Positions 11,228-63,304 of a stretch of DNA of 64,000 nt are shown here, one piece after another. Source of the stretch: Verrucomicrobiota bacterium (GTDB lineage: Bacteria > Verrucomicrobiota > Verrucomicrobiia > Limisphaerales > UBA11358); assembly GCA_049523555.1 (NCBI GenBank), contig JBEKMU010000013.1:2707-66706 (forward strand), given 5' to 3'. The notes under the pieces were generated by a model, which searched no databases, was not told the DNA's origin, and saw only the letters and a program-made list of their open reading frames with translations. A program made the translations under genes and the position numbers. Within the stretch, counting starts at the first letter, position 1. The number at the start of each line of letters is the position of its first letter.

Positions 11228-12787
11228 ATGAAACCCCAGGTCGAAATCTATGACACGACCCTGCGCGACGGTTCGCAGGGTGAAGGCATCAATTTCTCGG
11301 TCGCGGACAAGCTCCGCATCGCCGAGAAGCTCGACGCGTTCGGGGTGCATTACATCGAAGGCGGCTGGCCCGGCTCGAACCCCAAGGACATGGAATTTTT
11401 TGCGCAGGCCAGCCGGCACAAGTGGAAGAACGCCCAAATCGCCGCGTTCAGCATGACCCGCCGCAAGGGCGTCACCGTCGAGAAGGACGAGTTGATGCGG
11501 CAGATTCTCGATGCGAAAACACCGGTCGTCACCGTCGTCGGCAAAACGTGGCTGTTGCACGTCACCGAGGTGTTGCGCGCCAAGCCGGATGAAAACCTCG
11601 CGATGATCGGCGACACCATCCGCTTTTTGAAGGACCACGGCAAAACGGTCATCTACGACGCCGAGCACAGCTTCGACGGTTTCAAGGACGAACCGGAATA
11701 CGCGCTGGCCACATGGCAGGCCGCGGAGAAAGCGGGCGCGGAGTGCATCGCGTTGTGCGACACGAATGGCGGCTGTCTGCCGGAGGAAATCGCGCGCATC
11801 ACGGCGTTTGCGAAAAGCAAACTCACGGCCCGCCTCGGCATCCACACACACAACGATTGCGGTGTGGGTGTGGCCAATGCCCTCGCCGGCCTCGAAGCCG
11901 GTGCCACGCAGGTGCAGGGCACCATCAACGGCTACGGCGAACGCACGGGCAATTGCAATCTGACCAGCGTCATTCCGCTGATTCATTTCAAGTTGAAAAA
12001 AATCGGCGTGCCAGTGAAGTCATTACCCAAGCTCAAGGAGCTTTCCGAATTCGTGGATGAGATGGCCAACGTTCGGCACGATCCGCGCCAGCCGTGGGTG
12101 GGACAGACGGCTTTTGCGCACAAGGGCGGGATGCACGTGCACGCGATTGACCGCGTGGCGCGCAGCTACGAACACATTGACCCGGCCGCCGTTGGGAATT
12201 TCCGCCGCGTGCTCATCAGCGACATGTCGGGCCGCACGAACATTTTGATGAAGGGCGCGGAGCTCGGGTTCAAGCTCAAGCCGGAAATGCCGGAAGTGAA
12301 AACTATCACGCAGCGCGTCAAGGAACTGGAAAACCAAGGTTACGAGTTCGAGGCCGCCGAAGGTTCGCTCGCGCTGCTGATCAGCAAGACGCTCAAACAT
12401 CGCGACCCGCTGTTTCACGTGGACGCCTATCACGTTTCCATGCGGCGTGATGCCAGGGAGTCCGTCTGTGAAGCGACGGTCAAGGTCGGCGTCGGCACCC
12501 GGCAGGCGCAGACGGTGGCCGAGGGCGACGGCCCCGTGAACGCGCTCGACGGCGCATTGCGCTCGGCGCTGGTGAAGTTTTATCCGCAGCTTAAAAAGGT
12601 GACGCTCACGGATTACAAGGTGCGCATTCTTAACAGCGACACCGGCACCGCCGCCAAGACGCGCGTGCTCATCGAATCCAGCGACGGCCGGCGCGAATGG
12701 GGCACCGTCGGCGTGAGCGAGAACATCATCGAAGCCAGCCTCCAGGCGCTCGTGGACAGCATGGAATATGCGCTGTTAAAAAAATGA
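11228..12787 (+). CDS. cimA: Citramalate synthase / LeuA-related (isoleucine pathway)
   Basis: MKPQVEIYDTTLRDGSQGEGINFSVADKLRIAEKLDAFGVHYIEGGWPGSNPKDMEFF matches the citramalate synthase subfamily pattern. The ATG at 11228 lies inside ORF 11141..12787. Confidence 0.85.
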   Translation: MKPQVEIYDTTLRDGSQGEGINFSVADKLRIAEKLDAFGVHYIEGGWPGSNPKDMEFFAQASRHKWKNAQIAAFSMTRRKGVTVEKDELMRQILDAKTPVVTVVGKTWLLHVTEVLRAKPDENLAMIGDTIRFLKDHGKTVIYDAEHSFDGFKDEPEYALATWQAAEKAGAECIALCDTNGGCLPEEIARITAFAKSKLTARLGIHTHNDCGVGVANALAGLEAGATQVQGTINGYGERTGNCNLTSVIPLIHFKLKKIGVPVKSLPKLKELSEFVDEMANVRHDPRQPWVGQTAFAHKGGMHVHAIDRVARSYEHIDPAAVGNFRRVLISDMSGRTNILMKGAELGFKLKPEMPEVKTITQRVKELENQGYEFEAAEGSLALLISKTLKHRDPLFHVDAYHVSMRRDARESVCEATVKVGVGTRQAQTVAEGDGPVNALDGALRSALVKFYPQLKKVTLTDYKVRILNSDTGTAAKTRVLIESSDGRREWGTVGVSENIIEASLQALVDSMEYALLKK

Positions 12788-12792
12788 TTTTT

Positions 12793-12861
12793 CAACGCAA
12801 AGGCGCAAAGAAGCAAAGTCGCCAGGAGAAGAAAAATCTTTGCGTCTCTGCGTCTTGGCGT
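12793..12861. repeat. Imperfect inverted-repeat (hairpin) element in the cimA-valS gap
   Basis: CAACGCAAAGGCGCAAAGAAGCAAAG ... CTTTGCGTCTCTGCGTCTTGGCGT. The arms are reverse-complementary with a few mismatches. Confidence 0.7.
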
Positions 12862-12870
12862 CAAATTCCC

Positions 12871-15800
12871 ATGAGTGAAATTCCCAAGGCCTACGAACCG
12901 CAAGCAGTCGAAGACAAGTGGTACCAGTTCTGGCTCGACCAGAAGTGCTTCGTCGCCGATGCGCAGTCGAAGAAGCCTGCTTATTCCATTGTCATCCCGC
13001 CGCCGAATGTCACCGGCATGCTCACGATGGGCCACGTCCTCAACAACACCATCCAGGACATCCTCGCCCGCAAAGCGCGCATGGACGGCAAGGAGGTCCT
13101 CTGGCTGCCCGGCACCGATCACGCCGGCATTGCCACGCAGACGGTGGTGGAACGCACGTTAAAAAAGGCCGGTGAAATCAAACATCGTGACGATTTGGGC
13201 CGCGAAAAATTCCTCGAACGCGTCTGGCAATGGAAGGAAAAGCACGGCGGTATCATCATCCAGCAATTGAAGAAGCTCGGCGCGTCGTGCGACTGGACGC
13301 GTGAACGGTTCACCATGGACCCGGAATATTCGCGCTGTGTCCAGAAGGTATTTGTGGAGCTTTACAAAAAGGGCCTTATCTATCGCGGCAAGCGCATGGT
13401 GAACTGGGACCCTGCCGCCCGCACCGCGCTCTCCGACGAGGAAGTCGAAATGATCGAGGAAAAGGGGCACCTCTGGCACATCAAATATCCGCTGCTCGAC
13501 GACCAGGGCCAACCCAAGGCTGATGAATTCGTGGTCGTCGCCACGACCCGCCCGGAAACGATGCTCGGCGACGAAGCGGTGGCAGTGAATCCGTCCGACC
13601 CGCGTTACACGAAGCTGGTCGGGCGGAAGGTGCTGTTGCCGCTCCAGAACAAGCCCATCCCGGTCATTGCTGACGCACTGGTGGACCCGAAGTTCGGTAC
13701 CGGTTGCGTGAAGGTGACGCCCGCACACGATCCGGCCGACTACGAGATAGCGCTACGGCACAACCTGCCGATCACCGTCGTCATCGGCCTCGACGGCCAC
13801 ATGACGCCGGCCGCCGGCAAGGAGTTTGAGGGCTTGAACCGTTCGAAAGTGCGCCAGGCCGCAGTCGAGAAACTGACCGAGCAGGGCTTGTTGCTGAAGA
13901 CCGAGGATTACGTCCACAATGTCGGTTACAGCCAGCGCAGCCATGTGCCCATCGAACCGTATCTGAGCGAGCAATGGTTTTTGAAATATCCAAGCGTGGA
14001 AAAATCGCGGGCGTGCGTGGAGCAAGCCGACGTCGGAGGGGCGAGTTCCACGAGCCCCACTTCAAGTCAGGGCGTCGCAGAGCTCCGCCCTCCGAAAGAT
14101 GGGAAAATGCAGTTCCATCCGCAGCGCTGGGCGAAGGTCTATGACCACTGGATGGGCAACATCCAGGACTGGTGCATCAGCCGCCAGCTTTGGTGGGGAC
14201 ACCGGATTCCGGTGTGGACTCTGGCGTGGAATGACGAATGTGCCGGCGGTGCAATTGAAGAGGAAGAATTTTTGATGGGTATCAATGCATGGGTGAAGGA
14301 AGTCGGTTTAGTTGGCAAACTTGAAATTCACATCGCCCGTGATTTGCCCTATACAGCTCGCATTTTGACATTGGACTCGGAAGCGGATGCTCGTCTGGCA
14401 GAACTGGCTGAAGTCGCAAGCAAACATGATGAACAAGCTTCGTCTGAGTATGAAGCGCGCTTTACGACAGAAGCGAAGATTCTTTACACGATTGATACAC
14501 TCACCCAAGACCCCGATGTGCTCGATACGTGGTTCAGCTCCTGGCTCTGGCCGTTTGCGACGATGGGCTGGACGGGTGACAAATCCCAGGACTCCAACAA
14601 CCCAACACTCCGGGCCTTTTATCCGACCACCGACCTGGTCACCGGGCCGGACATCATTTTCTTCTGGGTCGCGCGCATGATTATGGCGGGCTACGAATTC
14701 ATGGGGGATTTGCCGTTCCGGAACGTCTATTTCACCGGCATCATCCGCGACAAGCAGGGCCGCAAGATGTCCAAGAGCCTCGGCAATTCGCCTGACCCGC
14801 TCGACCTCATCGCCAAGTTCGGCGCCGATGCGCTCCGGTTCGGCACCATGCGCAGCGCGCCGCTTGGTCAGGACATTTTGTTCGACGAACAAAACGTCGA
14901 GTTGGGCCGCAATTTCTGCAACAAGCTCTGGAACGCCTGCCGCTTCCGCCAGATGGTCGGCAGTGCCGACTTCCCAATTCAGGGGGAGATTAATCCAAAA
15001 CTATTAACGTCAGACGACAAATGGATTTTGCTCAAGCTCGATCAGGCGATTCGTGAAATGAACACCGCATTCGCCGAATACAAATTCAGCGACGCGACGG
15101 CGACGCTCTACCGCTTTTTCTGGAGCGAGTATTGCGATTGGTACGTCGAGGCGAGCAAAGCTGTGCTGTCGCACAGCGTTGAACCGTTAAAACGCGAAAC
15201 CGTTGAATCGGCCACCGGTTCAACGATTCAACCTTTCAACGATTCAACGGCTCGCAAAGCGAATACTCTGGCCGTGATTGATTTTGTTCTCTCGCATACG
15301 CTGCGGCTGTTTCATCCGTTTCTGCCGTTCATCACGGAGGAACTCTGGCATGGGATGGGTTATGCCGAGGACATGCCACAAGATCAGGGCGGCAAAACCA
15401 TCATGTTCGCGCCCTGGCCGAAGCCGCTCGGCGACGATTTCAAATCACACTACGACCTGACCGAACAGGACGAAAAACACATCGAAGCCCGCAACGAATT
15501 TGTCACGCAAGGCCGCAATCTGCGCCGCACGGCGAACATCGCCGCGAACAAGAAGGTCAAATTCATTCTCAAACCGGCGCGCGAATTGCCGGCTCACGAC
15601 CTCGAAGTGCTAAGGCTGTTGCTGAATGCCGAGGCGGTCGAGGTGAACACGAATTTTCAGCCGGCAAAAAACACGATGACGGTGCGCACCGCGTTGGGCG
15701 ATTTGTTTCTGCCGCTGGAAGGTTTGATTGACATCGAGGCGGAAAAAGCGCGGCTGAAAAAGGAGTTGGAAAAAATCGAGGCCGAGACCGCCAAAGTCGA

Positions 15801-15933
15801 ACAGAAGCTGGCCAACCCGAACTTCACGCAAAAGGTTCCAGCGCAAGTCTTGGAGGAACACAAGCAGCGTCTCGCCGAGTGGCATGGCAAACGCGACCAC
15901 GTGAAATCCGCACTGGCCGCCCTGCAAGGTTGA
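12871..15933 (+). CDS. valS: Valine--tRNA ligase
   Basis: MSEIPKAYEPQAVEDKWYQFW start, the class I HIGH-type motif PPPNVTGMLTMGHV and KMSKS (RKMSKSLGN). A C-terminal coiled coil is present. The ATG at 12871 lies inside ORF 12697..15933. Confidence 0.95.
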   Translation: MSEIPKAYEPQAVEDKWYQFWLDQKCFVADAQSKKPAYSIVIPPPNVTGMLTMGHVLNNTIQDILARKARMDGKEVLWLPGTDHAGIATQTVVERTLKKAGEIKHRDDLGREKFLERVWQWKEKHGGIIIQQLKKLGASCDWTRERFTMDPEYSRCVQKVFVELYKKGLIYRGKRMVNWDPAARTALSDEEVEMIEEKGHLWHIKYPLLDDQGQPKADEFVVVATTRPETMLGDEAVAVNPSDPRYTKLVGRKVLLPLQNKPIPVIADALVDPKFGTGCVKVTPAHDPADYEIALRHNLPITVVIGLDGHMTPAAGKEFEGLNRSKVRQAAVEKLTEQGLLLKTEDYVHNVGYSQRSHVPIEPYLSEQWFLKYPSVEKSRACVEQADVGGASSTSPTSSQGVAELRPPKDGKMQFHPQRWAKVYDHWMGNIQDWCISRQLWWGHRIPVWTLAWNDECAGGAIEEEEFLMGINAWVKEVGLVGKLEIHIARDLPYTARILTLDSEADARLAELAEVASKHDEQASSEYEARFTTEAKILYTIDTLTQDPDVLDTWFSSWLWPFATMGWTGDKSQDSNNPTLRAFYPTTDLVTGPDIIFFWVARMIMAGYEFMGDLPFRNVYFTGIIRDKQGRKMSKSLGNSPDPLDLIAKFGADALRFGTMRSAPLGQDILFDEQNVELGRNFCNKLWNACRFRQMVGSADFPIQGEINPKLLTSDDKWILLKLDQAIREMNTAFAEYKFSDATATLYRFFWSEYCDWYVEASKAVLSHSVEPLKRETVESATGSTIQPFNDSTARKANTLAVIDFVLSHTLRLFHPFLPFITEELWHGMGYAEDMPQDQGGKTIMFAPWPKPLGDDFKSHYDLTEQDEKHIEARNEFVTQGRNLRRTANIAANKKVKFILKPARELPAHDLEVLRLLLNAEAVEVNTNFQPAKNTMTVRTALGDLFLPLEGLIDIEAEKARLKKELEKIEAETAKVEQKLANPNFTQKVPAQVLEEHKQRLAEWHGKRDHVKSALAALQG

Positions 15934-17887: not shown

Positions 17888-18736
17888 ATGAAAGCCCTAT
17901 TATTGAATAAATCACTGGCCGTGGCCGTCAAAGCCGCGCGCGCCGCGGGGAAACTCATGCGCGACAACTGGCACGCGCCCAAGCGCGTCAACGCCACCGA
18001 TGCCCACGACATCAAGCTTGAACTCGATGTGCGCAGCCAGAAACTCATCGAAAAAAACCTGTGTGCCGCGTTTCCAAAAATTCCTTTGCTCGGCGAGGAA
18101 GGTTGCACGGGCGACATGAACGCCGAATATCGCTGGGTGGTGGACCCGATTGACGGCACGGTGAATTATTTCCTTGGCATTCCGCACGCTGCCGTATCTA
18201 TCGCTTTGCAGCGGTGGGGCGAGAGTCTCTCGAGCCCCGACTCAAAAACAAAAAAATCAGGGCTCGACAGAGTCTCGCCCCACCAAAATTTTGAAACAAT
18301 CCTCGGAGTAATCTATGGTCCGTTCACGGATGAACTCTGGACGGTGATTCGCGGCGGGCCGACGCGATTGAATGGGTGCGTCGTCCGTGTCAGCCGCCGC
18401 CAAAACCTGAAGGAGGCCGTCGTGGCCATGGGCTTTTCCAAGAGCAAACAAAACCTGGCAAAAAGCCTGCCGCACCTGAACCGGCTTTCCCGGCGCACGT
18501 TGAAAATGCGCATCATGGGTTCGGCAGCGCTCGAACTTGCCTACGTCGCCTCCGGCCGCCTCGACGCCTACATCGAGCGCACCATCAATTTGTGGGACAT
18601 CGCGGCGGGCGCATTGATGGTTGAATGTTCCGGCGGCGAATTTTACACCCGGCCCGCGCCGGGCGGGAAACTCCGGATGATCGCCAGCAACGGCCTGCTC
18701 CGCCGGAAACTTCAGCTTGGAAACTTGCTGAAGTGA
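17888..18736 (+). CDS. Inositol monophosphatase family protein (SuhB-like), with a repeat-derived internal insert
   Basis: Motifs LLGEEG and WVVDPIDGTVNYFLGIPHAAVSIAL, and a C-terminal WDIAAGALMV. Confidence 0.85.
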   Translation: MKALLLNKSLAVAVKAARAAGKLMRDNWHAPKRVNATDAHDIKLELDVRSQKLIEKNLCAAFPKIPLLGEEGCTGDMNAEYRWVVDPIDGTVNYFLGIPHAAVSIALQRWGESLSSPDSKTKKSGLDRVSPHQNFETILGVIYGPFTDELWTVIRGGPTRLNGCVVRVSRRQNLKEAVVAMGFSKSKQNLAKSLPHLNRLSRRTLKMRIMGSAALELAYVASGRLDAYIERTINLWDIAAGALMVECSGGEFYTRPAPGGKLRMIASNGLLRRKLQLGNLLK

Positions 18737-24645: not shown

Positions 24646-25347
24646 ATGAATGCTCAAGGTAACAGTACGCTTGTGAACGTTGACGGGGTGGGAAAAGTTT
24701 TTCATCGCGGCTCGGAAGACATCCACGTTCTGGCGGACCTGCATTTGCAGGCATCCGCCGGCGAATTTCTCGCGTTGATGGGGCCGTCGGGTTCGGGCAA
24801 AACCACGCTGTTGAACCTGATTGGCGGGCTCGACCGCCCGACAAAAGGCGCGGTCACGGTCGCCGGCGAACGCCTCGATCAATTGTCCGATCGCCGGCTG
24901 GCCGCGTGGCGCGCACGGCACATCGGCTTCGTTTTCCAGCTTTACAATCTGATGCCGATGCTGACGGCGGAGCGCAACGTGGAACTGCCGTTGTTGCTGA
25001 CGCATCTTTCCCGGACGGAGCGGCAGAAACACGTGGAAACGGCGCTCGCGGTGGTGGGGCTGTCGCATCGCGCGAAGCATTATCCGCGCACGCTTTCCGG
25101 CGGCGAACAACAGCGTGCGGGCATCGCCCGCGGTATTGTCACCGACCCGACGCTGCTGCTTTGCGACGAGCCGACGGGCGATTTGGACCGCAAGGCCGGC
25201 AACGAAATCCTGGACTTGCTTCAGGCGCTGAACCGGGAGCACGGCAAGACCATCATCATGGTCACGCACGATCCGCACGCCTCGGCGCGCGCGTCGCGGA
25301 CGGTCTATCTGGACAAAGGACAATTGAGCAACGAACCGGTCAAATGA
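24646..25347 (+). CDS. ABC transporter ATP-binding protein (MacB/LolD-like)
   Basis: Walker [10 protein letters not shown], signature LSGGEQQR and Walker [13 protein letters not shown]. Confidence 0.95.
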
Positions 25348-25352
25348 AGACG

Positions 25353-25450
25353 AATGGAGTAATGGAGTGTTGGGGCGATGGAGTATTGGGTTCACGCGCA
25401 AGCATGTCAGGCCTTTCCATCACTCCATCACTTCAATACTCCACCATCCC
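25353..25450. repeat. AATGGAGT-type inverted-repeat hairpin element
   Basis: Left arm AATGGAGTAATGGAGTGTTGGGGCGATGGAGTATTGGG. Right arm CATCACTCCATCACTTCAATACTCCACCATCCC. It belongs to the same family as 37952..38030. Confidence 0.8.
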
Positions 25451-33296: not shown

Positions 33297-34229
33297 ATGT
33301 CCTCAACCCTGAAATCATTGCGGGCTTTGTCCGACCCGACGCGGCTGCGCATCGTGGCGCTGCTGGAGCGGGATGAATTGTCCGTGCACGAGCTGCAGGA
33401 AATCACGCGGCTCGGCCAGTCACGCATTTCCACGCATCTCGGCCTGCTGCAGGATTCGGAACTGGTACAATCGCGGCGCGACGGCAAACGGACGTTCTAC
33501 AAGCTGAACCCGGCTGCGGATGGCGCCGCGCGCGAATTCATCCAACTGGCCATTCGCGGCGCGAAGGAACTGCCCGAGCACGCAGGCGACCAGATCAATC
33601 TCAAGCGCATCCTCGGCCGCCGGCGCGAACAAGCACAGGTCTATTTCAATCAGGTTGCCGGCCGGTTCGACCGCGTTTATGGTCCCGGCCGTTCGTGGCA
33701 GGCCTTTGGGCATCTGCTGTTGCGGATTTTGCCGCCGCTGGTCGTGGCCGACCTCGGCGCGGGCGAAGGCCTGTTGAGCGAACTGCTCGCGCGCCGCTGC
33801 AAAAAAGTCATCGCCGTGGACAACTCGGAAAAGATCGTCGCCTTCGGCGCGGCGAAGGCAAAAAAGAACGGGTTGAAAAATCTGGAGTTCCGCCTCGGCG
33901 ATTTGCAGAACCCACCCATTGAAGCCGGCAGCGTTGACCTGGTGATTTTGAGCCAAGCATTGCATCACGCCGAAGCCCCGTCCGCGGCAATTGCCGCCGC
34001 AGCCAAAATCCTTCGCCCGCACGGGCAAATCATCATCCTCGATTTGCTCAAGCACAATTTTGAGAAGGCGCACGGGCTTTACGGCGACCGTTGGCCGGGC
34101 TTTGCCGAGAGCGATTTGCAGCGCTGGCTGGAGGAGGCGGGTTTCAGGAAGATCGAAATCAGTGTCGTCGCCCGCGAGGAATCGCCGCCGCATTTTCAGA
34201 CCATTCTGGCGGGCGGGGAAAAAACGTAG
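33297..34229 (+). CDS. ArsR-family wHTH fused to a class I SAM-dependent methyltransferase-like domain (SahR-like regulator)
   Basis: LSDPTRLRIVALLERDELSVHELQEITRLGQSRISTHLGLLQDSELV (ArsR HTH). VVADLGAGEGLLSELLARRCKKVIAVDNS (SAM-binding motif I). The ATG at 33297 lies inside the TTG-started ORF 33270. Confidence 0.8.
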   Translation: MSSTLKSLRALSDPTRLRIVALLERDELSVHELQEITRLGQSRISTHLGLLQDSELVQSRRDGKRTFYKLNPAADGAAREFIQLAIRGAKELPEHAGDQINLKRILGRRREQAQVYFNQVAGRFDRVYGPGRSWQAFGHLLLRILPPLVVADLGAGEGLLSELLARRCKKVIAVDNSEKIVAFGAAKAKKNGLKNLEFRLGDLQNPPIEAGSVDLVILSQALHHAEAPSAAIAAAAKILRPHGQIIILDLLKHNFEKAHGLYGDRWPGFAESDLQRWLEEAGFRKIEISVVAREESPPHFQTILAGGEKT

Positions 34230-34292
34230 GACAGGCGTCGCGCCTGTCTCCATTTTCTCCTAACGTTGAGACAGGCTGGAAGCCTGTCCTAC
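34226..34292. repeat. 67-bp REPIN-like inverted doublet (GTAGGACAGGC...GCCTGTCCTAC)
   Basis: Arms GTAGGACAGGCGTCGCGCCTGTCTC and GAGACAGGCTGGAAGCCTGTCCTAC with a 17-nt spacer. It exactly fills the convergent gap between the regulator gene and leuS. The regulator's TAG stop lies inside the terminal GTAG. Confidence 0.85.
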
Positions 34293-34295
34293 ACT

Positions 34296-37136
34296 TTACG
34301 CCACGGCGATGTTCACCAGTTTTTTCGGCACGACGATGACTTTCCTGATCGTCTTGCCGGCCAGGAACGGCTTCACTTTTTCAGAGGCGCGAGCAGCGGC
34401 TTCGAGCGCGGCATTGTCAGCGTTGGCCGGGACTTTGATGACGTCGCGCAACTTGCCGTTCACCTGCACGGGAATTTCCAGTGTGTCCTCGACGAGCAAC
34501 GTTGCATCAAACTTTGGCCAGCAGGCGTAAGCCAGCGCGATTCGATGTTGGATGTTCGATGTTGGATGTTCGATGTTCAGCTTTTCCCACAACTCCTCCG
34601 CCAAGTGCGGCGCGAAAGGCTGGAGTAGAATCAAAAAATCGCGCAGCACCACAACCGGCTTTGTTTCCCAGGTGATGGCGTCGTTTACAAAGACCATCAG
34701 CGCCGAAATAGCCGTGTTGAAACGAAAGCCGTCCAAATCCGCCGTCACCTTTTTGATGCAGGCGTGCAACGTTTTAAGCTGCTCGCGCGCCGGTTCGACA
34801 TCTTTAATCGAGCCGCTGAGTTGGATTTTTTTGAGCAGTTCTGGGCCTTTCTGCGGCTGAATTGTTTCCGCCTGCTCGAATTCCGTTTCAGATTTTTCGT
34901 CCACGAACAGCCGCCAGACGCGGCCGAGGAAACGATAAACGCCTTCGACGCCCTTGGTGCTCCACGGCTTGACCATTTCAAGCGGGCCCATGAACATTTC
35001 GTAAAGACGCAACGCATCCGTGCCGAAATCTCTCAAAACATCATCGGGGTTCACCACGTTGCCGCGCGATTTGGACATTTTCTGGCCGTCCTCGCCGAGA
35101 ATCAGTCCTTGATTGACGAGCTTGAAGAACGGTTCGGGCGTCGAGACGTAGCCGAGGTCGAACAAGACCTTGTGCCAGAACCGTGCGTAAAGCAGATGTA
35201 ATACGGCGTGCTCGGTACCGCCGACATATAAATCCACGCCTGGAGTCGTGGACTTGGAGTCTGGGGTCTGGGATTTCGGTTCTTGGGAACCCATCCAATA
35301 TTGCTCCGCCTCCTTGCCGACGAACGATTGCGCATTCTTCGCGTCGAGGTAACGCAAATAATACCAGCAACTGCCGGCCCATTGCGGCATGGTGTTCGTC
35401 TCGCGCTGTGAGCCGTCGGGCAGATTCACCCAATCCTTCGCGCGCGCGAGCGGCGGCTGGCCATCAGGAGTGGGTTTGTAATCGTCAAGCGGCGGCGGCA
35501 AGACCGGCAGCGCGCTTTCGGGCAGGGCTTCGTGATACAAATTTCCAGCGGCATCCTTTTTCCAAATAATCGGGAAAGGCTCGCCCCAGTAACGTTGCCG
35601 GCTGAACAGCCAGTCGCGGAGTTTGTAATTGATGGTTTTCTTTCCAAGGCCTCTCGATTCGAGCCAAGCGGTGATTTTCTTTTTGGCTTCGGGCGTGGGC
35701 AGGCCGGTGATGGAAATCTCCGGCCCAGTGGAATTCACCGAAGTGCCGTCGTCCACGAATCCGCGCCAATCTGTCTTCTGGTCGGGTGGCTGAACGACTT
35801 GAATAATGGGCAGGTTGAATTTGGTGGCGAACTCGAAGTCGCGCGTGTCATGTGCCGGCACGGCCATGATGGCACCGGTCCCATAGCTGGCGAGAACGTA
35901 ATCAGCAATCCAAATGGGAATTTTTTCTCCGTTGACCGGGTTGATGACGTAAGCACCGGTGAAGACGCCAGTTTTCTCTTTGGCCAACTCGGTGCGTTCG
36001 AGGTCGGACTTCTTGGCAACGTCGGTTTTATACTTGGCAATCGCGGCGCGCAGTTCCGCAGTGGTAACTTGGTCAACGAGTTTGTGTTCCGGCGCGAGCA
36101 CCATGTAAGTTGCGCCGAAGAGCGTATCGGGTCGCGTAGTAAAAACTTCGATGAAGTTTGCAACGTCTGAAAACTGAACATTTGAAACTTGAAATCTCAC
36201 TGTGGCACCTTCGCTGCGACCAATCCAGTTCCGTTGCATTTCCTTGAGCGAATTGCTCCAGTCAATCGTGTCGAGGTCGGTGAGAAGTTTCTCGGCATAG
36301 GCGGTGATGCGGAGCATCCATTGGCGCATCGGTTTGCGGGTGACGGGAAATCCGCCGACTTCACTCTTGCCGTCCACAACTTCTTCGTTGGCCAGCACGG
36401 TGCCAAGTTGCTCGCACCACCAGACGGGTTGTTCGCTGACGTAGGCGAGGCGTTTTGAGTCGCGGTAGGCGCGGCGGCGGGCTTCGAGGTCTTGTTCGTC
36501 AGTAGGGCCGACCTGCCGGTCGGCCTGGACGCGCGGCAGCGCGTCCCTACCGGAAAGTTCCGCCGGATACTTCAGCGTCTCAATCGGCTCGGCCTTGTTC
36601 GTTTCCGGATTGAACCACGAGTTGTAAAGCTTCAGGAAAATCCACTGGGTCCACTTGAAATAATCGGGGTCGGTGGTGGCGAGTTCGCGCGACCAATCGT
36701 AACTGAAGCCAAGCGATTGAATCTGGCGCTTGAACGTGGCGATGTTGGCCTCGGTGGTCTGGCGGGGGTGCAGGCCGGTCTTGACGGCATATTGCTCGGC
36801 GGGCAGGCCGAAGGCGTCCCAGCCCATCGGATGCAGGACGTTGAAGCCGAGCGCGCGCCGGTAACGGGCGAGGATGTCCGTGGCGGTGTAACCTTCCGGA
36901 TGCCCAACGTGCAAACCCGCGCCGCTAGGATACGGAAACATGTCGAGGATGTAAAATTTGGGTGGCAACTGCGTGGCGGCCACCTTGCCGGAAAGACGAT
37001 GGCGTTTGGCGAAAGGGTGCCCGTCCGGGAGGACTTCGCCCGGATTAAACGCGCGAAAGGTCTGCTGTTCGTTCCAAAATTGCTGCCACTTAGGTTCAAT
37101 CAAATGAAACGGATATTGCCTGCGGCTGCTCGACAT
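34296..37136 (-). CDS. leuS: Leucine--tRNA ligase
   Basis: [23 protein letters not shown] (HIGH region), KMSKSRGN, and the CP1 editing domain. It is 946 aa, longer than usual because of several inserts. Confidence 0.97.
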
Positions 37137-37194: not shown

Positions 37195-37953
37195 CTAATG
37201 TTTGACCGGTAAACTTCGCCAGACGAGTCGCAACCCTTCGAGCGTCAAGTTGGGTTCGACGGCTGAAATTTCCGGCAAACGTGCGGCAATTAATCCGGCG
37301 TAACCGCCCGTCGCCACCACCGGCAAATGTTTCACCTGCAATTCGCGCTTCAACTCGGCGATCAATTCACGAACCAGCCCGCGATAACCATGCACCGCGC
37401 CGACGAGCATCGCTTGTTCAGTGCTCCTGCCAATGCTCGTTTTGACTTCGCGGATTTTGATGCGCGGCAGCAACGCCGTTTTCTCGTGCAGATAATCCGT
37501 CATCGCCGCCAGCCCCGGCGCAATGATGCCCCCCGCGTAATTGCCCGCGCGATTGACGACATCAAACGTCACCGCCGTTCCGAAATCCACCACCACCACC
37601 GGCGCGCCAAAGCGCTTGCGCGCAGCCACGGCGTTTGCCAGGCGATCCTCCCCGATTGTGTCCGGCTTCGGATAATCAATGCCCACGCCGCAAAGTGTTT
37701 TTCGCGTGAGTTCGAATGCGTTCAAATTCCAAAGTCGGCGGACGGTTTTGCGGACGTGCGGTGTCGCGCGCGGCACCACGCTGCATAGCGCAGCGCCCTT
37801 CAAACTCGCGCGGCCAACAAATTTTTTCGCCAATTTCTCCGCCGCGCCCTTGAACCAGAACGATGTGGGCATGTTTGTGTGCTTCATCACACACCGGTCG
37901 TTGGCCAGACCGAGATGCGTGTTCGTGTTGCCGATGTCGAAAAGCAAAAGCAT
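37195..37953 (-). CDS. coaX: Type III pantothenate kinase
   Basis: [16 protein letters not shown] start, then [12 protein letters not shown] and ATGGYA. The ATG at 37953 lies inside ORF 37195..38043, whose 5' part is repeat-encoded. Confidence 0.9.
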
Positions 37954-38030
37954 GGAGTAATGGAGTAATGGAGTAATGGAGTGTTGGAAATCTTTTTCGG
38001 TGCCGCACCACTCCACCACTCCATCACTCC
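37952..38030. repeat. AATGGAGT-type inverted-repeat hairpin element (second copy)
   Basis: ATGGAGTAATGGAGTAATGGAGTAATGGAGTGTTGG ... CCACTCCACCACTCCATCACTCCG. It fills the birA-coaX gap. Confidence 0.8.
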
Positions 38031-38032
38031 GT

Positions 38033-39010
38033 TCATTTCTCAAGCGTTACATCCCCACCCGTGATGCGTTCCAAATGTCCATGTTCGGTCCGCAGCAACA
38101 GCGCGCCATCGTCATCCAGCGACTCGGCCCGACCGCTCACGCGCCGCCCGCCGATTTGAATCGTCACCGCGCGGCCAATTGTCGTGCAATGCGCTTCCCA
38201 CTCGTCAGCCACGTCTGCAAAAAAATCGCCACAGACGCGCGCGTAATCACAGTCGAGTTCGCGCAAAATGGCCGTTGCCAGCTCCGGACGGGAAATGGTT
38301 TTGCCGGCTTCAATTCTCAACGACGTCGCCGTCCTGCGCAATTCCGCCGGAAATTCATTCACGCTCAGGTTCACATCCACGCCGATGCCGAGGATGACGT
38401 GCTTGACGCAGTCCAATTCCGCGCTCATTTCCGTCAGAATGCCCGCGACTTTCCTGCCGCGAATCAAAATGTCGTTCGGCCATTTGATTTCCGGGTTCAG
38501 GCCGGTTTCGGATTGAATCGCACGCCGCAGAGCCATGGCGGAAGCAACGGTGAGTCGCGTTGTTTCCTGCGGGCGCAAATCCGGTCGCAGCAAAATGGAA
38601 AACCAAAGGCCTTTTCGCGCCGGCGACATCCACGCGCGACCGAGCCGGCCCCGGCCTTTCGTCTGCGATTCCGCAAAAACGACGGCGCCTTCCTTCACAC
38701 CGTCGCGCGCGAGCTTTTCAATCACGTCGTTGGTCGAAGTCGTCTGTTCAAACACGCGGATGTCGCGCCCGACGATTTTCGTTTTGCCGAGGCGCGCGAG
38801 CAAATCGTCCGCGTACAGCGCGTCGGGAACGCTCACGAGCCGGTAGCCGAAGTGCGGGCTGGCCTCGATGTCGTAGCCAAGCTGGCGCAACTCCTCGATG
38901 TGTCCCCAAATCGCCGCGCGCGTGACGCCCAGTTGCTCGGCGATTTCCGCACCCGACACCCCGTCGGTATTCGCGCGCAACGCGGTAAGAATTTTTGCGT
39001 CCGTCGTCAT
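38033..39010 (-). CDS. birA: Bifunctional biotin--[acetyl-CoA-carboxylase] ligase / biotin operon repressor
   Basis: N-terminal HTH (SGAEIAEQLGVTRAAIWGHIEELRQLGY) and the ligase motif ESQTKGRGRLGRAWMSP. Confidence 0.92.
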   Translation of the reverse strand: MTTDAKILTALRANTDGVSGAEIAEQLGVTRAAIWGHIEELRQLGYDIEASPHFGYRLVSVPDALYADDLLARLGKTKIVGRDIRVFEQTTSTNDVIEKLARDGVKEGAVVFAESQTKGRGRLGRAWMSPARKGLWFSILLRPDLRPQETTRLTVASAMALRRAIQSETGLNPEIKWPNDILIRGRKVAGILTEMSAELDCVKHVILGIGVDVNLSVNEFPAELRRTATSLRIEAGKTISRPELATAILRELDCDYARVCGDFFADVADEWEAHCTTIGRAVTIQIGGRRVSGRAESLDDDGALLLRTEHGHLERITGGDVTLEK

Positions 39011-39016
39011 TTTACA

Positions 39017-39084
39017 ATCGTCCTCGTCGTCGTCCTCGTTCTCGAAATCGAATCATCGAGGAGAAGGACGAGAATGAGGACGAT
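39017..39084. repeat. GTCCTCGT-type inverted-repeat hairpin element
   Basis: ATCGTCCTCGTCGTCGTCCTCGTTCTCG ... CGAGGAGAAGGACGAGAATGAGGACGAT. It fills the nadC-birA gap. Confidence 0.8.
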
Positions 39085-39088
39085 AAAA

Positions 39089-40024
39089 TCATGTTTCAAA
39101 ATCCAAACCGATGTCCACCGCGCGCGCGGAATGTGTGAGCGCGCCGACGGAAATGAAATCCACGCCGGTCCCGGCAATCGCGCGGACATTCGCCAGATTC
39201 ACGCCGCCGCTGGCCTCGGTCTTCATGCGGCCTTTGACTTTCTGCACCGCCAGCCGCAGTTGAATCGGGTTCATGTTGTCGAGCAAAATGATGTCCGCCC
39301 ACGCATCGGCGGCCTGCTCGACCTGCTCCAGCTTGTCGGCTTCGACCTCAATTTTCAGTTTCGGAAACTTTTCGCGCGCGCGCTGGACGGCGGCGGCGAT
39401 GGCATTCGGTTTTTCACCGCGCAGCGCCGCGAGGTGATTGTCCTTGATGAGCACCATGTCGAACAGGCCGGTGCGATGGTTGTGCCCGCCACCGCACGCG
39501 ACGGCGTATTTCTCGAAACGCCGCCAGCCGGGCGTGGTTTTGCGCGTGTCCAGAATCTGCGCGTGAGTTCCTTTGATGGCTTCGACAAATTGCGCAGTAA
39601 GCGTGGCGATGCCGGAAAGCCGCTGGACGAAATTCAACGCGACACGCTCGGCGCTCAAAAGGGCGCGGGCCGGGCCGGAAATTTTCAGCAAGGTTTCATT
39701 CTCACCGACATGTTGGCCGTCATTCGCCAGCCGCTCAATTTTGATTTCCCCTTCGGAGGGCGGAGTTCCACGACGCCCTGATTCATTTTGAGATTTTGGG
39801 GGCTCGCAGCGCTCGCCCCTCCGATTGATGAATTGTAAGACTTCGCAGAACGCAGCTTCGGCGAAGGCGAGTCCGGCCACGACGAGCGGTTCGCGCGCAC
39901 GCATGAGCGCTTTGGCCGTCGCGGTTGCGGGCACGATGGATAAAGTCGTGGCGTCACCGCTGCCGATGTCCTCGGCAAGGGCCAGCTTGACGGCCTGACG
40001 GATTTCTGCGGCGGACAATTCCAC
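39089..40024 (-). CDS. nadC: Nicotinate-nucleotide diphosphorylase (carboxylating)
   Basis: AEIRQAVKLALAEDIGSGDATT, LDTRKTTPGWR and IEVEADKLEQVEQAADAWADIILLDNM. The likely GTG start at 40024 gives M-ELSAAEI. The longest ORF reaches 40144 but would overlap the divergent gene. Confidence 0.85.
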   Translation of the reverse strand: MELSAAEIRQAVKLALAEDIGSGDATTLSIVPATATAKALMRAREPLVVAGLAFAEAAFCEVLQFINRRGERCEPPKSQNESGRRGTPPSEGEIKIERLANDGQHVGENETLLKISGPARALLSAERVALNFVQRLSGIATLTAQFVEAIKGTHAQILDTRKTTPGWRRFEKYAVACGGGHNHRTGLFDMVLIKDNHLAALRGEKPNAIAAAVQRAREKFPKLKIEVEADKLEQVEQAADAWADIILLDNMNPIQLRLAVQKVKGRMKTEASGGVNLANVRAIAGTGVDFISVGALTHSARAVDIGLDFET

Positions 40025-40132
40025 GCCGTTAAAATGAAGGCGAATGGCAGAAGGGAAAAGGAAAAATGCGCGGTGGAGAAAGCGGTTGAAATTGTAATGG
40101 CACGGCCTGCGGCTTTGGTTTAGAACAACCGT

Positions 40133-40825
40133 GTGCAAACCCAAATCCCATTGGCGATACCGTTTCTAATTGTGGTGGTGATTGTCGTTGCGGTGATCAG
40201 CGCCATTTACAGCATGATTCAGGCGCGCAAACGACGGGAGGGACTGTTTGAGCTGGCGCAACAGTTGGGTCTGGATTTCAGCGCGGCGGAAGATTACGCC
40301 CTCGCCGACCAGTACGGCTTTCTCAAACAACTGGCACAGGGCGAAAACCGCTACGCCCGCAATGTCCTCTCCGGAACCTATCAACAAAACCAGGTGCTGG
40401 CGTTCGATTATCATTACGAGACGCACTCGACTGATTCCAAGGGCAACCGCCAGACGCAGCACCACTGGTTTTCCTTTTTCATTTTGACGCTACCGGCGGT
40501 TTTCCCCGACCTGACCATCCGGCGCGAAAATTTCTTCACAAAAGTTGCCGAAGCATTTGGCTACCAGGACATCAAGTTCGAGTCCGCCGAATTTTCCAAG
40601 GCTTTCTGCGTGCGGTCGCCGGACAAAAAATACGCCTACGACGTCTGCAACGCAAAGATGATGGAATACCTGCTGGCCAATCGCGACTTGAGCGTCGAAA
40701 TCGAAAATCAGGTGCTGGCGCTGGCATTCGACACCTGCCTGTCGGTCGGACAAGTCGAATCCAATTTGCAGCGGCTGGTGGAAATCCGGTCGCGCCTGCC
40801 CGACTATTTGTTTGTCAAAACCTGA
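40133..40825 (+). CDS. Membrane-anchored hypothetical protein (paralog 1; possibly DUF3137-like)
   Basis: N-terminal TM IPFLIVVVIVVAVISAIYSMI. Conserved blocks LAQGENRYARNVLSG and VLAFDYHYE are present. About half of the residues are shared with the next ORF by eye. Confidence 0.6.
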   Translation: MQTQIPLAIPFLIVVVIVVAVISAIYSMIQARKRREGLFELAQQLGLDFSAAEDYALADQYGFLKQLAQGENRYARNVLSGTYQQNQVLAFDYHYETHSTDSKGNRQTQHHWFSFFILTLPAVFPDLTIRRENFFTKVAEAFGYQDIKFESAEFSKAFCVRSPDKKYAYDVCNAKMMEYLLANRDLSVEIENQVLALAFDTCLSVGQVESNLQRLVEIRSRLPDYLFVKT

Positions 40826-40838
40826 CAGCCTGAAAAAT

Positions 40839-41435
40839 ATGGACTACGCGGAAACGAAGGAATTGGCGACCCGCCTTGGGCTTCGTTTCGATCCCGCACA
40901 GAATTACGTCCTCGCCGACGACTACGGGTTCCTGCATCACCTGGCGCAAGGCGAGAACCGTTACGCTTTCAACGTCCTGTCCGGCCGTCACCGGCAGAAT
41001 GAAGTGCTGGCTTTCGATTATCATTATGAAATACCGGCGAAGGGCTCGAACCGCGAAGCCTCCAGCTCCCATTGCTACCTGACGACAGCCATCGTGTTGA
41101 TGCCGGCATATTTTCCGGAGCTGCGCATTGCGCCGGAAGGGTTGTTGTCGAAAATCGCCGAAGCATTTGGCGAGGAGGATATTCATTTCGAATCGGCCGA
41201 ATTCACCCGCGCCTTTCGTGTATGGTCAAAGGACAAACGGTTTGCCTACGATATCTGCAATCCACAGGTGATTGATTACCTGCTGGAAAATCGCGACTTG
41301 AACATCCAAATCCAGAATTGCACGCTGGCGCTGGTGTCGGATACACAGTGGCCGGCAAAACAAGTCGAAAACAACCTGGAACGGTTGAGCGAGATCCGCT
41401 CGCGTCTGCCGGAATATCTGTTCACGAAAACATGA
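40839..41435 (+). CDS. Hypothetical protein (paralog 2, no TM anchor)
   Basis: Collinear with the previous ORF (LAQGENRYAFNVLSG, VLAFDYHYE, FESAEFTRAF, IRSRLPEYLF). The ATG at 40839 lies inside ORF 40812. Its stop overlaps the lemA start (ATGA). Confidence 0.6.
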   Translation: MDYAETKELATRLGLRFDPAQNYVLADDYGFLHHLAQGENRYAFNVLSGRHRQNEVLAFDYHYEIPAKGSNREASSSHCYLTTAIVLMPAYFPELRIAPEGLLSKIAEAFGEEDIHFESAEFTRAFRVWSKDKRFAYDICNPQVIDYLLENRDLNIQIQNCTLALVSDTQWPAKQVENNLERLSEIRSRLPEYLFTKT

Positions 41436-57200: not shown

Positions 57201-57328
57201 CACGGATGAACACGGATGGACACGGATAAAATTCGTAGCAGCCGAGGTAACGAGGCTCTGACTTGCATCACGCATCACGCAACACGCATCACGGCGCAGA
57301 AAAGTTAGAGCCTCCTCACGTCGGCTGC
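57201..57328. repeat. Composite repeat block in the nuoL-nuoK spacer
   Basis: Three 10-mers CACGGATGAA/CACGGATGGA/CACGGATAAA. The inverted pair GTAGCAGCCGAGGTAACGAGGCTCT ... AGAGCCTCCTCACGTCGGCTGC. A CACGCATCA-type tandem lies between the arms. Confidence 0.8.
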
Positions 57329-57669: not shown

Positions 57670-57768
57670 TGATTGAATCGTTGAATCGTTGAACGGTTGA
57701 ACGGTTGAATCGGCGAAATTCGATGTCGCCGCGCCGGTTCAACGATTCGACGCTTTTAACGATTAAAC
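57670..57768. repeat. GTTGAATCG/GTTGAACGG-type inverted-repeat element in the nuoK-nuoJ spacer
   Basis: TTGAATCGTTGAATCGTTGAACGGTTGAACGGTTGAATCGGCG ... CGCCGGTTCAACGATTCGACGCTTTTAACGATTAAACG. Confidence 0.8.
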
Positions 57769-59915: not shown

Positions 59916-61664
59916 TTAGATTTTCACCGTCGCGCCCGTGTCACCGAGGCCCGCCCACGTCAAACCGTCGAACGCGGGCACGTCCTTCGCCATTTCGTTG
60001 AACAAACCCTCGATCGTCAGGAAACCGTCCTGGCCGGTGACGTTGTAAACCAAATCGTGCAAAAACTCCCACTCGGGCCGCGCGTCGCCGGGCGCCTCGA
60101 CCGCCTTCATGAATTTCTGAACGCGGCCTTTCGTGTTTGTGAACGTGCCGCGTTTCTCGACGTGCGCGCAGCCGGGCAAAAGGTAATGCGCCAGCTTCGT
60201 CGTTTCGTTCGGCAAAATGTCGCTAACGATGAGCGTGTCCAGTTTGCCGAGCAATTCGACGTCAATGCCGTTCTTGGTCACGTCCTCGCCGAAAACAATG
60301 AGTGTTTTGATTTTGCCGGCCCGGATGAATTCGGCGATCGGCCGCATTTTGATGCCCACGCTCGCCTGGCAAATGCCGATGAGCCGGGCACCGGTCTTGT
60401 TCGGATTGCGGTCGGCGTTCAGCAACAGCTTGTCGCCTTCGCCGAAACGTCCGACGGAATCGGTCATTGCCCCGAACTTGTCAGCCAGTTTTTTAAGCAG
60501 CCACAATTCCTCGTTCGTCTGCCGGGCCGAACCGATGATGGCGACCGAACCGTGCGCGGCCCGCTTAAGCTTCTCCGCGATTTCCGACAGTGCGGCAGTC
60601 CACGTTGTCTTTTGTAGGACAGGCATCTTGCCTGTCTCTGACTTTTCTTTAGATGGAGACAGGCTGGAAGCTTGTCCTACATTACGAATCAAGACGTCCT
60701 TCAAGCGATCTTCCCGACCGATCCACTTGTAGTTCAAGCGACCGTAATCACACATCCATGGACCGTTGACGGCGTCGTTCTCCCGGGGCGTGTAGCGGTA
60801 AACTTTTTCTTCGCGCGAGCCGATGATGATGTTGCAGCCGGTCGCGCAACTCGTGCAGATGCTCTTGGTTTCCTTGAGGAACCACACGCGCATTTGGAAA
60901 CGGAAATCCTTCGACGTGAGCGCGCCGACGGGACAAATATCCACAGTGTTCAGTGTGTAGTTGTTGTCGAATACCTTGCCCGGATAGGCGGTGAGCGTGC
61001 TGTAGCTGCCGCGATTGACGATGCCGAGCGCGTCGTCGCCCGCAATGTCCTTGGTGAACCGGATGCAGCGTGTGCAAAGGATGCAACGTTCGTCGTCGAG
61101 CACGATGCGCGGCCCGAGGTCAACCGTCTTGGGCTTGTGCACCTTCGGTTCCACAAAGCGGCTCGCGCTCTGGCCGTAATCCACCGAATATTCCTGCAGT
61201 TTGCATTCGCCCGCCTGGTCGCAAATCGGGCAATCGAGCGGATGGTTGATGAGCAGGAATTCCAGCACGCCCTCGCGCATTTGTTTCACGCCGGGTGTGT
61301 TCGTGTAAATTTCCATGCCGGGCGAAATCGGCGTGGCGCAGGCGATGGCTGGACGCGGCGATTTCATGATTTTCGGCGTGCCGTCGGGATTCAAAATCGG
61401 TTTGCGGTCCGGACCGAGCGCCGGTGTGCCGTACTCCACGAGGCACATGCGGCAATTGCCCGCTACGGGCAACTTCGAATGATAGCAATAATGCGGCACA
61501 TCCACCCTAGCCAGCTCGCACGCCTGAATCATCGTGGTGGGCGTCAACTTGCCGGACCAGTCCGCCGTGAGGCGCGGCACCTCGATTTCGCGCCCGTCCA
61601 CCTTCACCTTGATCTTTCCGACTGGTGGCGCGGGCTTCGTTTGCGTTGTGGCTGCGGTTGACAT
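59916..61664 (-). CDS. nuoG: NADH-quinone oxidoreductase subunit G (short form) carrying a repeat-derived in-frame insert
   Basis: The N-terminal 2Fe-2S/4Fe-4S motifs are CYHSKLPVAGNCRMCLV, HPLDCPICDQAGECKLQ and CILCTRCIRF. A molybdopterin-like domain follows. Confidence 0.93.
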   Translation of the reverse strand: MSTAATTQTKPAPPVGKIKVKVDGREIEVPRLTADWSGKLTPTTMIQACELARVDVPHYCYHSKLPVAGNCRMCLVEYGTPALGPDRKPILNPDGTPKIMKSPRPAIACATPISPGMEIYTNTPGVKQMREGVLEFLLINHPLDCPICDQAGECKLQEYSVDYGQSASRFVEPKVHKPKTVDLGPRIVLDDERCILCTRCIRFTKDIAGDDALGIVNRGSYSTLTAYPGKVFDNNYTLNTVDICPVGALTSKDFRFQMRVWFLKETKSICTSCATGCNIIIGSREEKVYRYTPRENDAVNGPWMCDYGRLNYKWIGREDRLKDVLIRNVGQASSLSPSKEKSETGKMPVLQKTTWTAALSEIAEKLKRAAHGSVAIIGSARQTNEELWLLKKLADKFGAMTDSVGRFGEGDKLLLNADRNPNKTGARLIGICQASVGIKMRPIAEFIRAGKIKTLIVFGEDVTKNGIDVELLGKLDTLIVSDILPNETTKLAHYLLPGCAHVEKRGTFTNTKGRVQKFMKAVEAPGDARPEWEFLHDLVYNVTGQDGFLTIEGLFNEMAKDVPAFDGLTWAGLGDTGATVKI

Positions 61665-63110: not shown

Positions 63111-63251
63111 CGCGTGATGCGTAATGCGTGATGCGTGAAAAAGTCGGGCAGGCGTCTCGCCTGCTCGCGCCGAGCGAAGCAAGGCAGGGAGATAGAAATG
63201 CCAAATGCTCGCGCTGATGCGCTCGCCGGGCAGGCGAGACGCCTGCCCTAC
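63111..63251. repeat. GTGATGCGT tandem plus 109-bp REPIN-like inverted doublet in the nuoF-nuoE spacer
   Basis: CGCGTGATGCGTAATGCGTGATGCGTGA. Then GTCGGGCAGGCGTCTCGCCTGC (63143..63164) and GGGCAGGCGAGACGCCTGCCCTAC (63228..63251). The arms are near-perfect reverse complements. Confidence 0.85.
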
Positions 63252-63304
63252 GTTGCCGGCTTGACTGGCCGATGAAACCCTTTAGCCTAGCCAACGCTCC
63301 GGCT

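Follow-up and report, generated by a model that had tools for sequence, protein, structure and literature searches.

A REP Doublet Inserted in Frame in the nadC Gene of a Verrucomicrobiota Bacterium

We found that the nadC gene (quinolinate phosphoribosyltransferase) in the 64-kb stretch of DNA analyzed here (hereafter the window) carries an inverted doublet of a short repeat family inserted in frame, and that its sequence reads as described in the first-pass annotation. The element is most probably a tolerated in-frame insertion of a RAYT-associated REP doublet (REPIN-like) of the TCGGAGGG family, with its peptide as a passenger. The insertion in nadC is old and widespread and not peculiar to this genome, and the nadC copy exemplifies a habit that extends across the genome in this lineage.

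The host ORF is NadC. The minus-strand ORF that contains the gene spans 39089..40144, and the protein showed both domains of the enzyme in Pfam (QRPTase_N, E = 3e-17; QRPTase_C, E = 3e-60), matched QPRTases in the PDB (1x1o at E = 7e-68), and was 100% identical to a protein from an NCBI "Verrucomicrobiota bacterium" MAG. The QPRTase fold was found as well, since the predicted structure aligned in Foldseek with solved QPRTases at TM-scores, normalised to target length, of 0.78-0.85. The translation reads ...CEVLQFIN-RRGERCEPPKSQNESGRRGTPPSE-GEIKIERLANDGQHV, with the element peptide (N)RRGERCEPPKSQNESGRRGTPPSE between CEVLQFIN and GEIKIERL. Two other features were observed beside the gene. An inverted repeat with 29-nt arms at 39017-39084 (ATCGTCCTCGTCGTCGTCCTCGTTCTCGA / TCGAGGAGAAGGACGAGAATGAGGACGAT) occupies the whole interval from the nadC stop codon to birA; it looks like another inserted element because nadC and birA overlap in relatives (e.g. 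L201 and L208). In addition, two adjacent paralogous genes on the opposite strand (40133-40825 and 40812-41435) share ~72-75% DNA identity in parts of their sequence.

The element reads TCGGAGGGCGGAGTTCCACGACGCCC, a 20-nt spacer, and GGGGCTCGCAGCGCTCGCCCCTCCGA (table 1). Its plus strand, which is antisense to nadC, has the commonest order of the family (TTCCA-spacer arm first), and on the nadC strand arm 1 encodes ...GRRGTPPSE and arm 2 encodes RRGERCEP. The spacer was absent from every other family member examined. The element had been described as 72 nt and 24 codons. The length holds for the core, but the core does not consist of whole codons: it begins on the third base of an Asn codon and amounts to 24 codon-equivalents. 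Nor is 72 nt the size of the whole insertion, because filled alleles differ from empty-site orthologs by a net 84 nt (28 aa), composed of the 72-nt core, AGGGGAA, and a repeated ATCAA. The TTGAT at 39825-39829 repeats the TTGAT at 39741-39745, and this repetition (ATCAA on the coding strand) is possibly a 5-bp target duplication (79 + 5 = 84 nt); we make this proposal tentatively because a consistent target duplication was not seen in other family copies. The hairpin formed by the whole element was moderately better than shuffles when folded as RNA (z = -3.05) and not better than shuffles as DNA (z = -1.07).

Table 1.— Features of the nadC element, its relative in valS, and states of the nadC site in related genomes. 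Coordinates are window positions unless a locus is named.
Feature	Location	Strand	Description
Second copy of the nadC-element family	14033..14096	+	In frame inside valS (12697..15933, +)
nadC (quinolinate phosphoribosyltransferase), host gene	39089..40024	-	311 aa; GTG start near 40024
Seven extra bases AGGGGAA (coding strand)	39746..39752	-	Inserted segment outside the palindromic core; from filled vs empty alleles
72-nt REP doublet core (REPIN-like)	39753..39824	+	Two inverted 26-nt REP-like arms
Arm 1	39753..39778	+	TCGGAG tag; GGGCG/CGCCC 5-bp stem variant; TTCCA in loop
20-nt spacer	39779..39798		Private to nadC copies
Arm 2	39799..39824	-	Minus strand TCGGAGGGGCGAG-CGCTG-CGAGCCCC; GGGGC/GCCCC stem variant
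Derived flank codons VLQFI(N)	39825..39841	-	Replace ancestral LSTAI(K)
Full nadC insert	L001, L002, L003, L005, L006, L007, L024, L032		
nadC insert with second insertion	L008 6257-6319		63 nt, in frame, inside one arm
nadC insert, spacer shortened	L016		
nadC insert, left arm lost	L004, L011		
Different octamer-like repeat at nadC site	L069, ~2630-2730		CAAAGTC/CAAAGTT runs encoding KVQSPKSK...FKVQSSKS
Small indels at nadC site	L021, L076		
nadC site empty	Nearly all other genomes of the 80		

The family to which the element belongs has the consensus TCGGAGGG-RCGAG-N5-CGAGYCCC and is abundant in peat and soil metagenomes. In a metagenome scan, the arm TCGGAGGGRCGAGTTCCACGAGYCCC was present in at least 120 contigs, mostly as inverted doublets. 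The unit consists of a TCGGAG tag, GG-NN-GAG, 5 nt, and CGA-NN-CCC, followed by a variable spacer of 12-40 nt and a second, reverse-complemented arm, which as reverse complement ends CCCTCCGA(A). Of the 121 elements flanked on each side by 300 nt or more, 89 were two-arm +/- doublets; single arms were also found in the family. The flanks outside the unit were unrelated among 130 metagenome copies, and a conserved sequence beyond the palindrome, for which the CAAGCC-like left flank of the valS, nadC, and L057 copies had been a candidate, was therefore rejected.

The stems of the arms were analyzed in 103 arms that the scan pattern had not selected. The two variable dinucleotides of an arm were complementary to each other (AC/GT 35, GC/GC 23, CG/CG 17, and GC/GT 13), and three compensatory stem types occurred among the arms. 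Counted as pairs, these positions comprised 179 Watson-Crick, 19 G-T, and 8 mismatched combinations, compared with 100, 25, and 81, respectively, expected under independent assortment. Thus, each arm is a small hairpin, with 11 nt of loop closed by a 5-bp stem and a tag on its 5' side. The tolerance of G-T pairs and the near absence of A-C pairs point to a strand-specific structure. These observations agree with REP/REPIN-RAYT systems in that the repeat is a multi-copy short imperfect palindrome and occurs as an inverted doublet with a short spacer; the tag, however, was GGAG in 99 of the 103 arms and not the canonical GTAG.

A transposase gene was found with the family. A 163-aa ORF scored 85.8 bits against the NCBIfam model NF047646, REP-associated tyrosine transposase (curated cut-off 80), and contains an HLH (HUH-type) motif and a YLWENPIKDGLV motif; a Pfam search of the same ORF returned no match. 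This RAYT gene is present on five contigs (L174, L105, L168, L119, and L103), in all of which a doublet lies 8-10 nt past its stop codon. One arm lies 47-85 nt upstream of the gene where the contig extends there (L174, L105, and L168), and L119 and L103, which are cut at the upstream end of the gene, show the downstream doublet; in metagenome contigs, the RAYT gene is flanked by REPs of this same family. No RAYT gene was found by tblastn within the 64-kb window, and the link of this genome to the transposase thus rests on the shared repeat family. We also observed, at positions 1-1511 of L054, a locus with an empty nadC site, DNA like that just past the RAYT stop codon, together with its doublet; its distance upstream of nadC is ~6 kb, and the RAYT gene would sit just outside the fetched locus.

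When the window was searched with the nadC arm at up to three mismatches, one other match was obtained, at 14070-14095 on the minus strand inside valS, and no second match arose in 100 shuffled sequences. The crosswise relationship between the nadC arms and the valS copy, which had been estimated by eye in the first-pass annotation, was borne out (27/30 and 22/26 identical positions). Both window copies of the TCGGAGGG family are intragenic and are doublets. The valS copy is translated in another frame than the nadC copy, as VGGASSTSPTSSQGVAELRPPK, and adds ~24 aa compared with the Thermus thermophilus ValRS (PDB 1gax). Similarity of this kind by chance, or descent of the whole repeat family from the nadC stretch, is scarcely credible: only the GC-rich, low-complexity look of the arms speaks for it, but none of the shuffles reproduced the match, hundreds of copies occur in unrelated contexts, including around the RAYT gene, and outgroup NadC proteins do not have the segment.

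Doublets of other REP families were also found in the window. A GTGG-tagged doublet (GGTGGGGCGAGAGTCTCTCGAGCCCC...) at 18213-18284 is in frame in an inositol-monophosphatase-family gene (ORF 17888..18736, +) and encodes RWGESLSSPDSKTKKSGLDRVSPHQ, and a GTAG-tagged doublet (GTAGGACAGGC...) at 60613-60681 is in frame in nuoG (ORF 59916..61664, -) and encodes ...NVGQASSLSPSKEKSETGKMPVLQ.... A GTAG-tagged sister of the latter is located at 34221-34297, and 63140-63254 holds a doublet of the GTAGGGCAGGC type, also with the GTAG tag; no read-through ORF was found at either of these two doublets. At least four housekeeping genes in 64 kb (valS, the IMPase-family gene, nadC, and nuoG) therefore carry in-frame doublets, and three REP families are represented among them.

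Several repeats of other kinds were observed in the window. The ValS protein has 1020 aa against a profile of 860 positions, which makes further insertions in it likely, and octamer-type tandem/inverted repeats (CGTTGAAY / TTCAACG) lie at 15177-15253 within the valS reading frame (...VEPLKRETVESATGSTIQPFNDSTARK...). A related octamer array is located at 57671-57755, and other octamer arrays at 25342-25443 and 37932-38033 (ATGGAGTA) and at 57268-57293 and 63113-63138 (TCACGCA). Long tandem coding repeats at 5772-6800 and 7276-8448, which have 150-nt and 147-nt periods and the motif ...LVQGSDGNFYGTT..., show no relation to the REP families.

Members of the TCGGAGGG family are routinely found inserted in frame. 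The family arms are free of stop codons in all six frames, as read directly from the sequence, and in 54 of the 121 elements (45%) a frame stays open for 60 codons or more to either side, compared with 59% of random windows from the same loci. When 10 of the longest read-through ORFs were tested, nine proved to be recognisable genes, and the confirmed hosts are IleS, MetH, PrmC, RsmA, Mfd, ArgS, PheT, an acyl-ACP-phospholipid acyltransferase/ligase, and CstA; in most of them, the profile match spans the insert or covers both of its sides. The family does not keep to the extragenic location of REP/REPIN-RAYT systems, and, as with Rickettsia palindromic elements (RPEs), it is inserted in frame in many unrelated functional genes. 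The lengths of the intragenic cores were uniform modulo 3 (14/12/11); an enrichment of lengths divisible by three was accordingly rejected, and the boundaries of insertion are therefore not the ends of the palindrome. A prmC-like methyltransferase gene (L095, 4405-4723) was observed to contain two separate family doublets, and the orthologous positions are occupied in L116 and L130 too.

We addressed the history of the insert by comparing NadC orthologs. Among the 120 closest NadC clusters, ~97 carry the insert (~87 full-length and ~10 shortened) and 23 are empty; two full-length clusters have a further nested insertion of 21 aa. Empty NadC is 283 aa long (...ELS-TAIKIE...), and the ortholog alignment that the first-pass annotation had proposed gave only ELS(T/A)A at the site in insert-free proteins, with all more distant orthologs and several close ones reading ELS(T/A)A(I/V)KIE. 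The insertion reading had been made to depend on the segment being missing from orthologs in repeat-free genomes. Many orthologs do share the segment, but their genomes are not repeat-free, and the more distant orthologs are empty at the site; thus, the insertion reading stands. We also surveyed 80 GTDB species genomes, of which 12 species-level Limisphaerales genomes carry the nadC insert (table 1). All 80 are MAGs of Verrucomicrobiota/Limisphaerales recovered from peat, bog, and soil, and some of the contigs bear evidently wrong organism labels. The nested insert of L008 encodes ~21 aa (DHGSRSEHFNLGNKLVAGLGS) and is also present in proteins P0076 and P0095; no other copy of its 63 nt was found in the 1.6 Mb of DNA searched. 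The octamer-like repeat of L069 and the indels of L076 and L021 are observed in the same NadC loop, which appears as a permissive hot spot.

The spacer CAAAA(A)TCTCAAAA(C/T)GAATCA and the derived flank GTCTTTnnnTTCATCAAT recur in every filled allele, and the spacer was found nowhere else in the same 1.6 Mb. Since a nadC-private spacer and a derived flank are common to all filled alleles, the insert arose once. Its distribution is patchy. On a neighbour-joining NadC tree built with the insert masked and unbootstrapped, filled and empty alleles interleave; the filled allele of L007 is 92-97% identical in DNA to the empty allele of L026 and ~81% identical to the window allele. The empty alleles are not simple deletions of the filled one because they keep the outgroup sequence. 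The simplest reading of the patchiness is allele exchange by homologous recombination among related lineages. We infer such exchange, as no hitch-hiking tract was visible beside the insert and the tree is unbootstrapped; hitch-hiking was rejected because the similarity profiles of filled-filled, empty-empty, and filled-empty pairs were the same outside the insert.

The site had been thought to be a short beta-hairpin, a location that the structural model did not support. In an AlphaFold2 run with 79 homologues (mean pLDDT 74), the insert follows helix 52-69 and precedes strand 95-98 (IKIE) in the N-terminal domain, and is thus placed in a helix-to-strand connection. Residues 65-91 have pLDDT < 50, and the model predicts that the insert loop is disordered.

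The selection regime differs between the insert and its host. In 16 filled alleles, identity at codon positions 1/2/3 was 0.90/0.91/0.70 outside the insert (mean dN 0.096, dS 0.55) and 0.76/0.76/0.77 within it (mean dN 0.27, dS 0.36), and dN/dS was 0.18 in the rest of the gene and ~0.8 in the insert. The host enzyme is under normal purifying selection, and the insert peptide is nearly unconstrained as a protein. A function of the 28-aa loop in NadC, acquired by co-option and serving, for example, regulation or contacts within an oligomer, is accordingly very improbable, even though the insert persists in most of the closest NadC clusters, SGRRGTPPSE recurs even in alleles at 76-80% identity, and the flank codons have changed from LSTA to V(F/L)xF, through which the model extends the preceding helix. 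Besides the high dN/dS, such a function is disfavored by the low pLDDT of the loop, by the existence of derivatives that are degenerate, truncated, or broken up by the additional in-frame insertion of 63 nt, by sister species without the insert, and by the many unrelated proteins that the same family decorates.

As DNA, the insert has diverged less rapidly than synonymous sites in other parts of nadC; because its dS of 0.36 is below 0.55, it is either not simply neutral or younger than the species splits. The in-arm stems were 91.8% paired across 17 orthologous inserts (alignment A2), with a covariation score that was matched by none of 500 shuffles. These values, together with the equal conservation of the three codon positions, the lower dS, the comparison of the window allele with that of L007 (91% identical in the insert and 65% at third positions elsewhere), and the abundance of G-T and rarity of A-C pairs on the tagged strand, would fit an insert kept for a nucleic-acid role, for example as a hairpin, in mRNA or ssDNA, that adjusts translation or mRNA stability or as a binding site of the kind that extragenic REPs provide, with the peptide as a by-product. 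We regard this role as improbable, although less so than co-option of the peptide. A few switches of whole-arm type account for the in-arm covariation: the arms are of types GGGGC + GGGCG in the window allele, GGGGC + GGGAC in L002, and GGGAC on both sides in L001. All three alleles keep a homologous spacer, and the switches may reflect gene conversion by other copies of the family. Pairing in the long inter-arm hairpin was 75.6%, with four positions mismatched in 15 of the 17 alleles, and no excess covariation or compensatory evolution of this hairpin was found among the 17. Moreover, the left arm or part of the spacer has been lost in L004, L011, and L016 with the gene kept, close relatives manage without the insert, and a younger, horizontally spread allele explains the low divergence equally well. 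We similarly give only a small chance to the broader idea that intragenic doublets still interact with the REP population, with arms swapped frame-neutrally and the element either passing as a short cassette between the nadC orthologs of different species or having a strand-specific nucleic-acid role within essential genes.

We therefore favor a tolerated insertion and propose the following course. REPIN-like units are not self-mobile but are mobilised by a RAYT, an HUH/Y1 transposase, and a RAYT presumably performed the insertion in nadC. A single entry of one copy placed the element in the surface helix-strand connection of the N-terminal domain, and the gene stayed open because the net gain was 84 nt with no stop codon in that frame. 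In the resulting QPRTase, the loop is 28 residues longer, is predicted to be disordered, and has a high content of Arg, Pro, Ser, Glu, and Lys. The enzyme is presumably active with this loop, whose peptide would be a tolerated passenger and not a selected domain, and the short in-arm stem is still retained in the DNA. The filled allele has persisted across species-level divergence in Limisphaerales beside empty alleles in close relatives, which would imply allele exchange by homologous recombination.

The element works like RPEs and intragenic REPs, and it has the REP palindrome, the doublet organization, and the RAYT association of known systems; it is distinguished by the GGAG tag, the high intragenic fraction, and the host order. 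A survey of GTAG- and CGTC-tagged REPs reported that some are intragenic in several species, most numerously in Opitutus terrae (Verrucomicrobia) and Rickettsia conorii, and that more than half of the intragenic inserts are dimers encoding 20-30 aa, with tRNA synthetase and repair genes included among the hosts (Di Nocera et al. 2013; PMC3733652). The same survey reported the tag variants GYAG, GYRG, GTRG, GTMG, and GTGG in the GTAG superfamily and described RAYT genes as flanked by their own REPs (PMC3733652). By their description, the O. terrae and GTAG REPs resemble the nadC family in its short tagged stem-loops, often inverted dimers in frame in housekeeping genes, in the 20-30 aa that the dimers encode, in the RAYT association, and in the host phylum. 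It differs in its GGAG tag, with GTAG or GTGG carried by the sister families in the window, in its occurrence in another order (Limisphaerales MAGs), and in a stem of only 5 bp with an 11-nt loop.

REPINs have been described as extragenic and as two inverted REPs with a spacer in many copies per genome (Bertels and Rainey 2011; PMC3116915). The nadC family shares with REPIN-RAYT systems the inverted REP pair with its spacer, the many copies, and the presence of these REPs around a RAYT gene; however, read-through ORFs hold ~45% of the sampled TCGGAGGG-family copies, and what is conserved in the nadC copy is not the long REPIN hairpin. The classical in-frame palindromic selfish DNA is the RPE (Ogata et al. 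2000); in later summaries (PMC10969869 and PMC3733652), RPE-1 is described as ~100-150 bp long, with a conserved peptide, in an obligate intracellular alphaproteobacterium, and without a known active transposase. Both RPEs and the nadC family are palindromic selfish repeats that lie in frame in many unrelated, still-functional genes and add surface peptides, but RPE-1 is longer and belongs to Rickettsia and not to Verrucomicrobiota, so that the resemblance is one of analogy only.

Bacterial MITEs (Correia/NEMIS, ERIC, and Nezha) are small non-autonomous inverted-repeat elements that occasionally form in-frame fusions, with IS-derived terminal inverted repeats and regular target-site duplications. 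The TCGGAGGG family resembles them as small inverted-repeat elements that give in-frame fusions. Its arms act as inverted termini, and TTGAT flanks the nadC unit, but a consistent duplication was not seen in other copies, and the enzyme associated with the family is a RAYT.

Intragenic REPs have already been published for another verrucomicrobium, and the novelty here lies in the series of alleles, the switching of arms, and the patchiness of the distribution. In an uncultured Limisphaerales lineage of peat soil, repeats of the REP/REPIN type are not really "extragenic". For annotation, the family accounts for unusual low-complexity loops (RRGE...GRRGTPPSE, SEGRVPRVP...) that many Verrucomicrobiota proteins contain. 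Taken together, the nadC alleles form a natural series of filled, empty, degenerate, and doubly inserted states, which could be used to gauge the tolerance of a protein to insertions of selfish DNA, the lifetime of such insertions, and any action of RAYTs on coding DNA.
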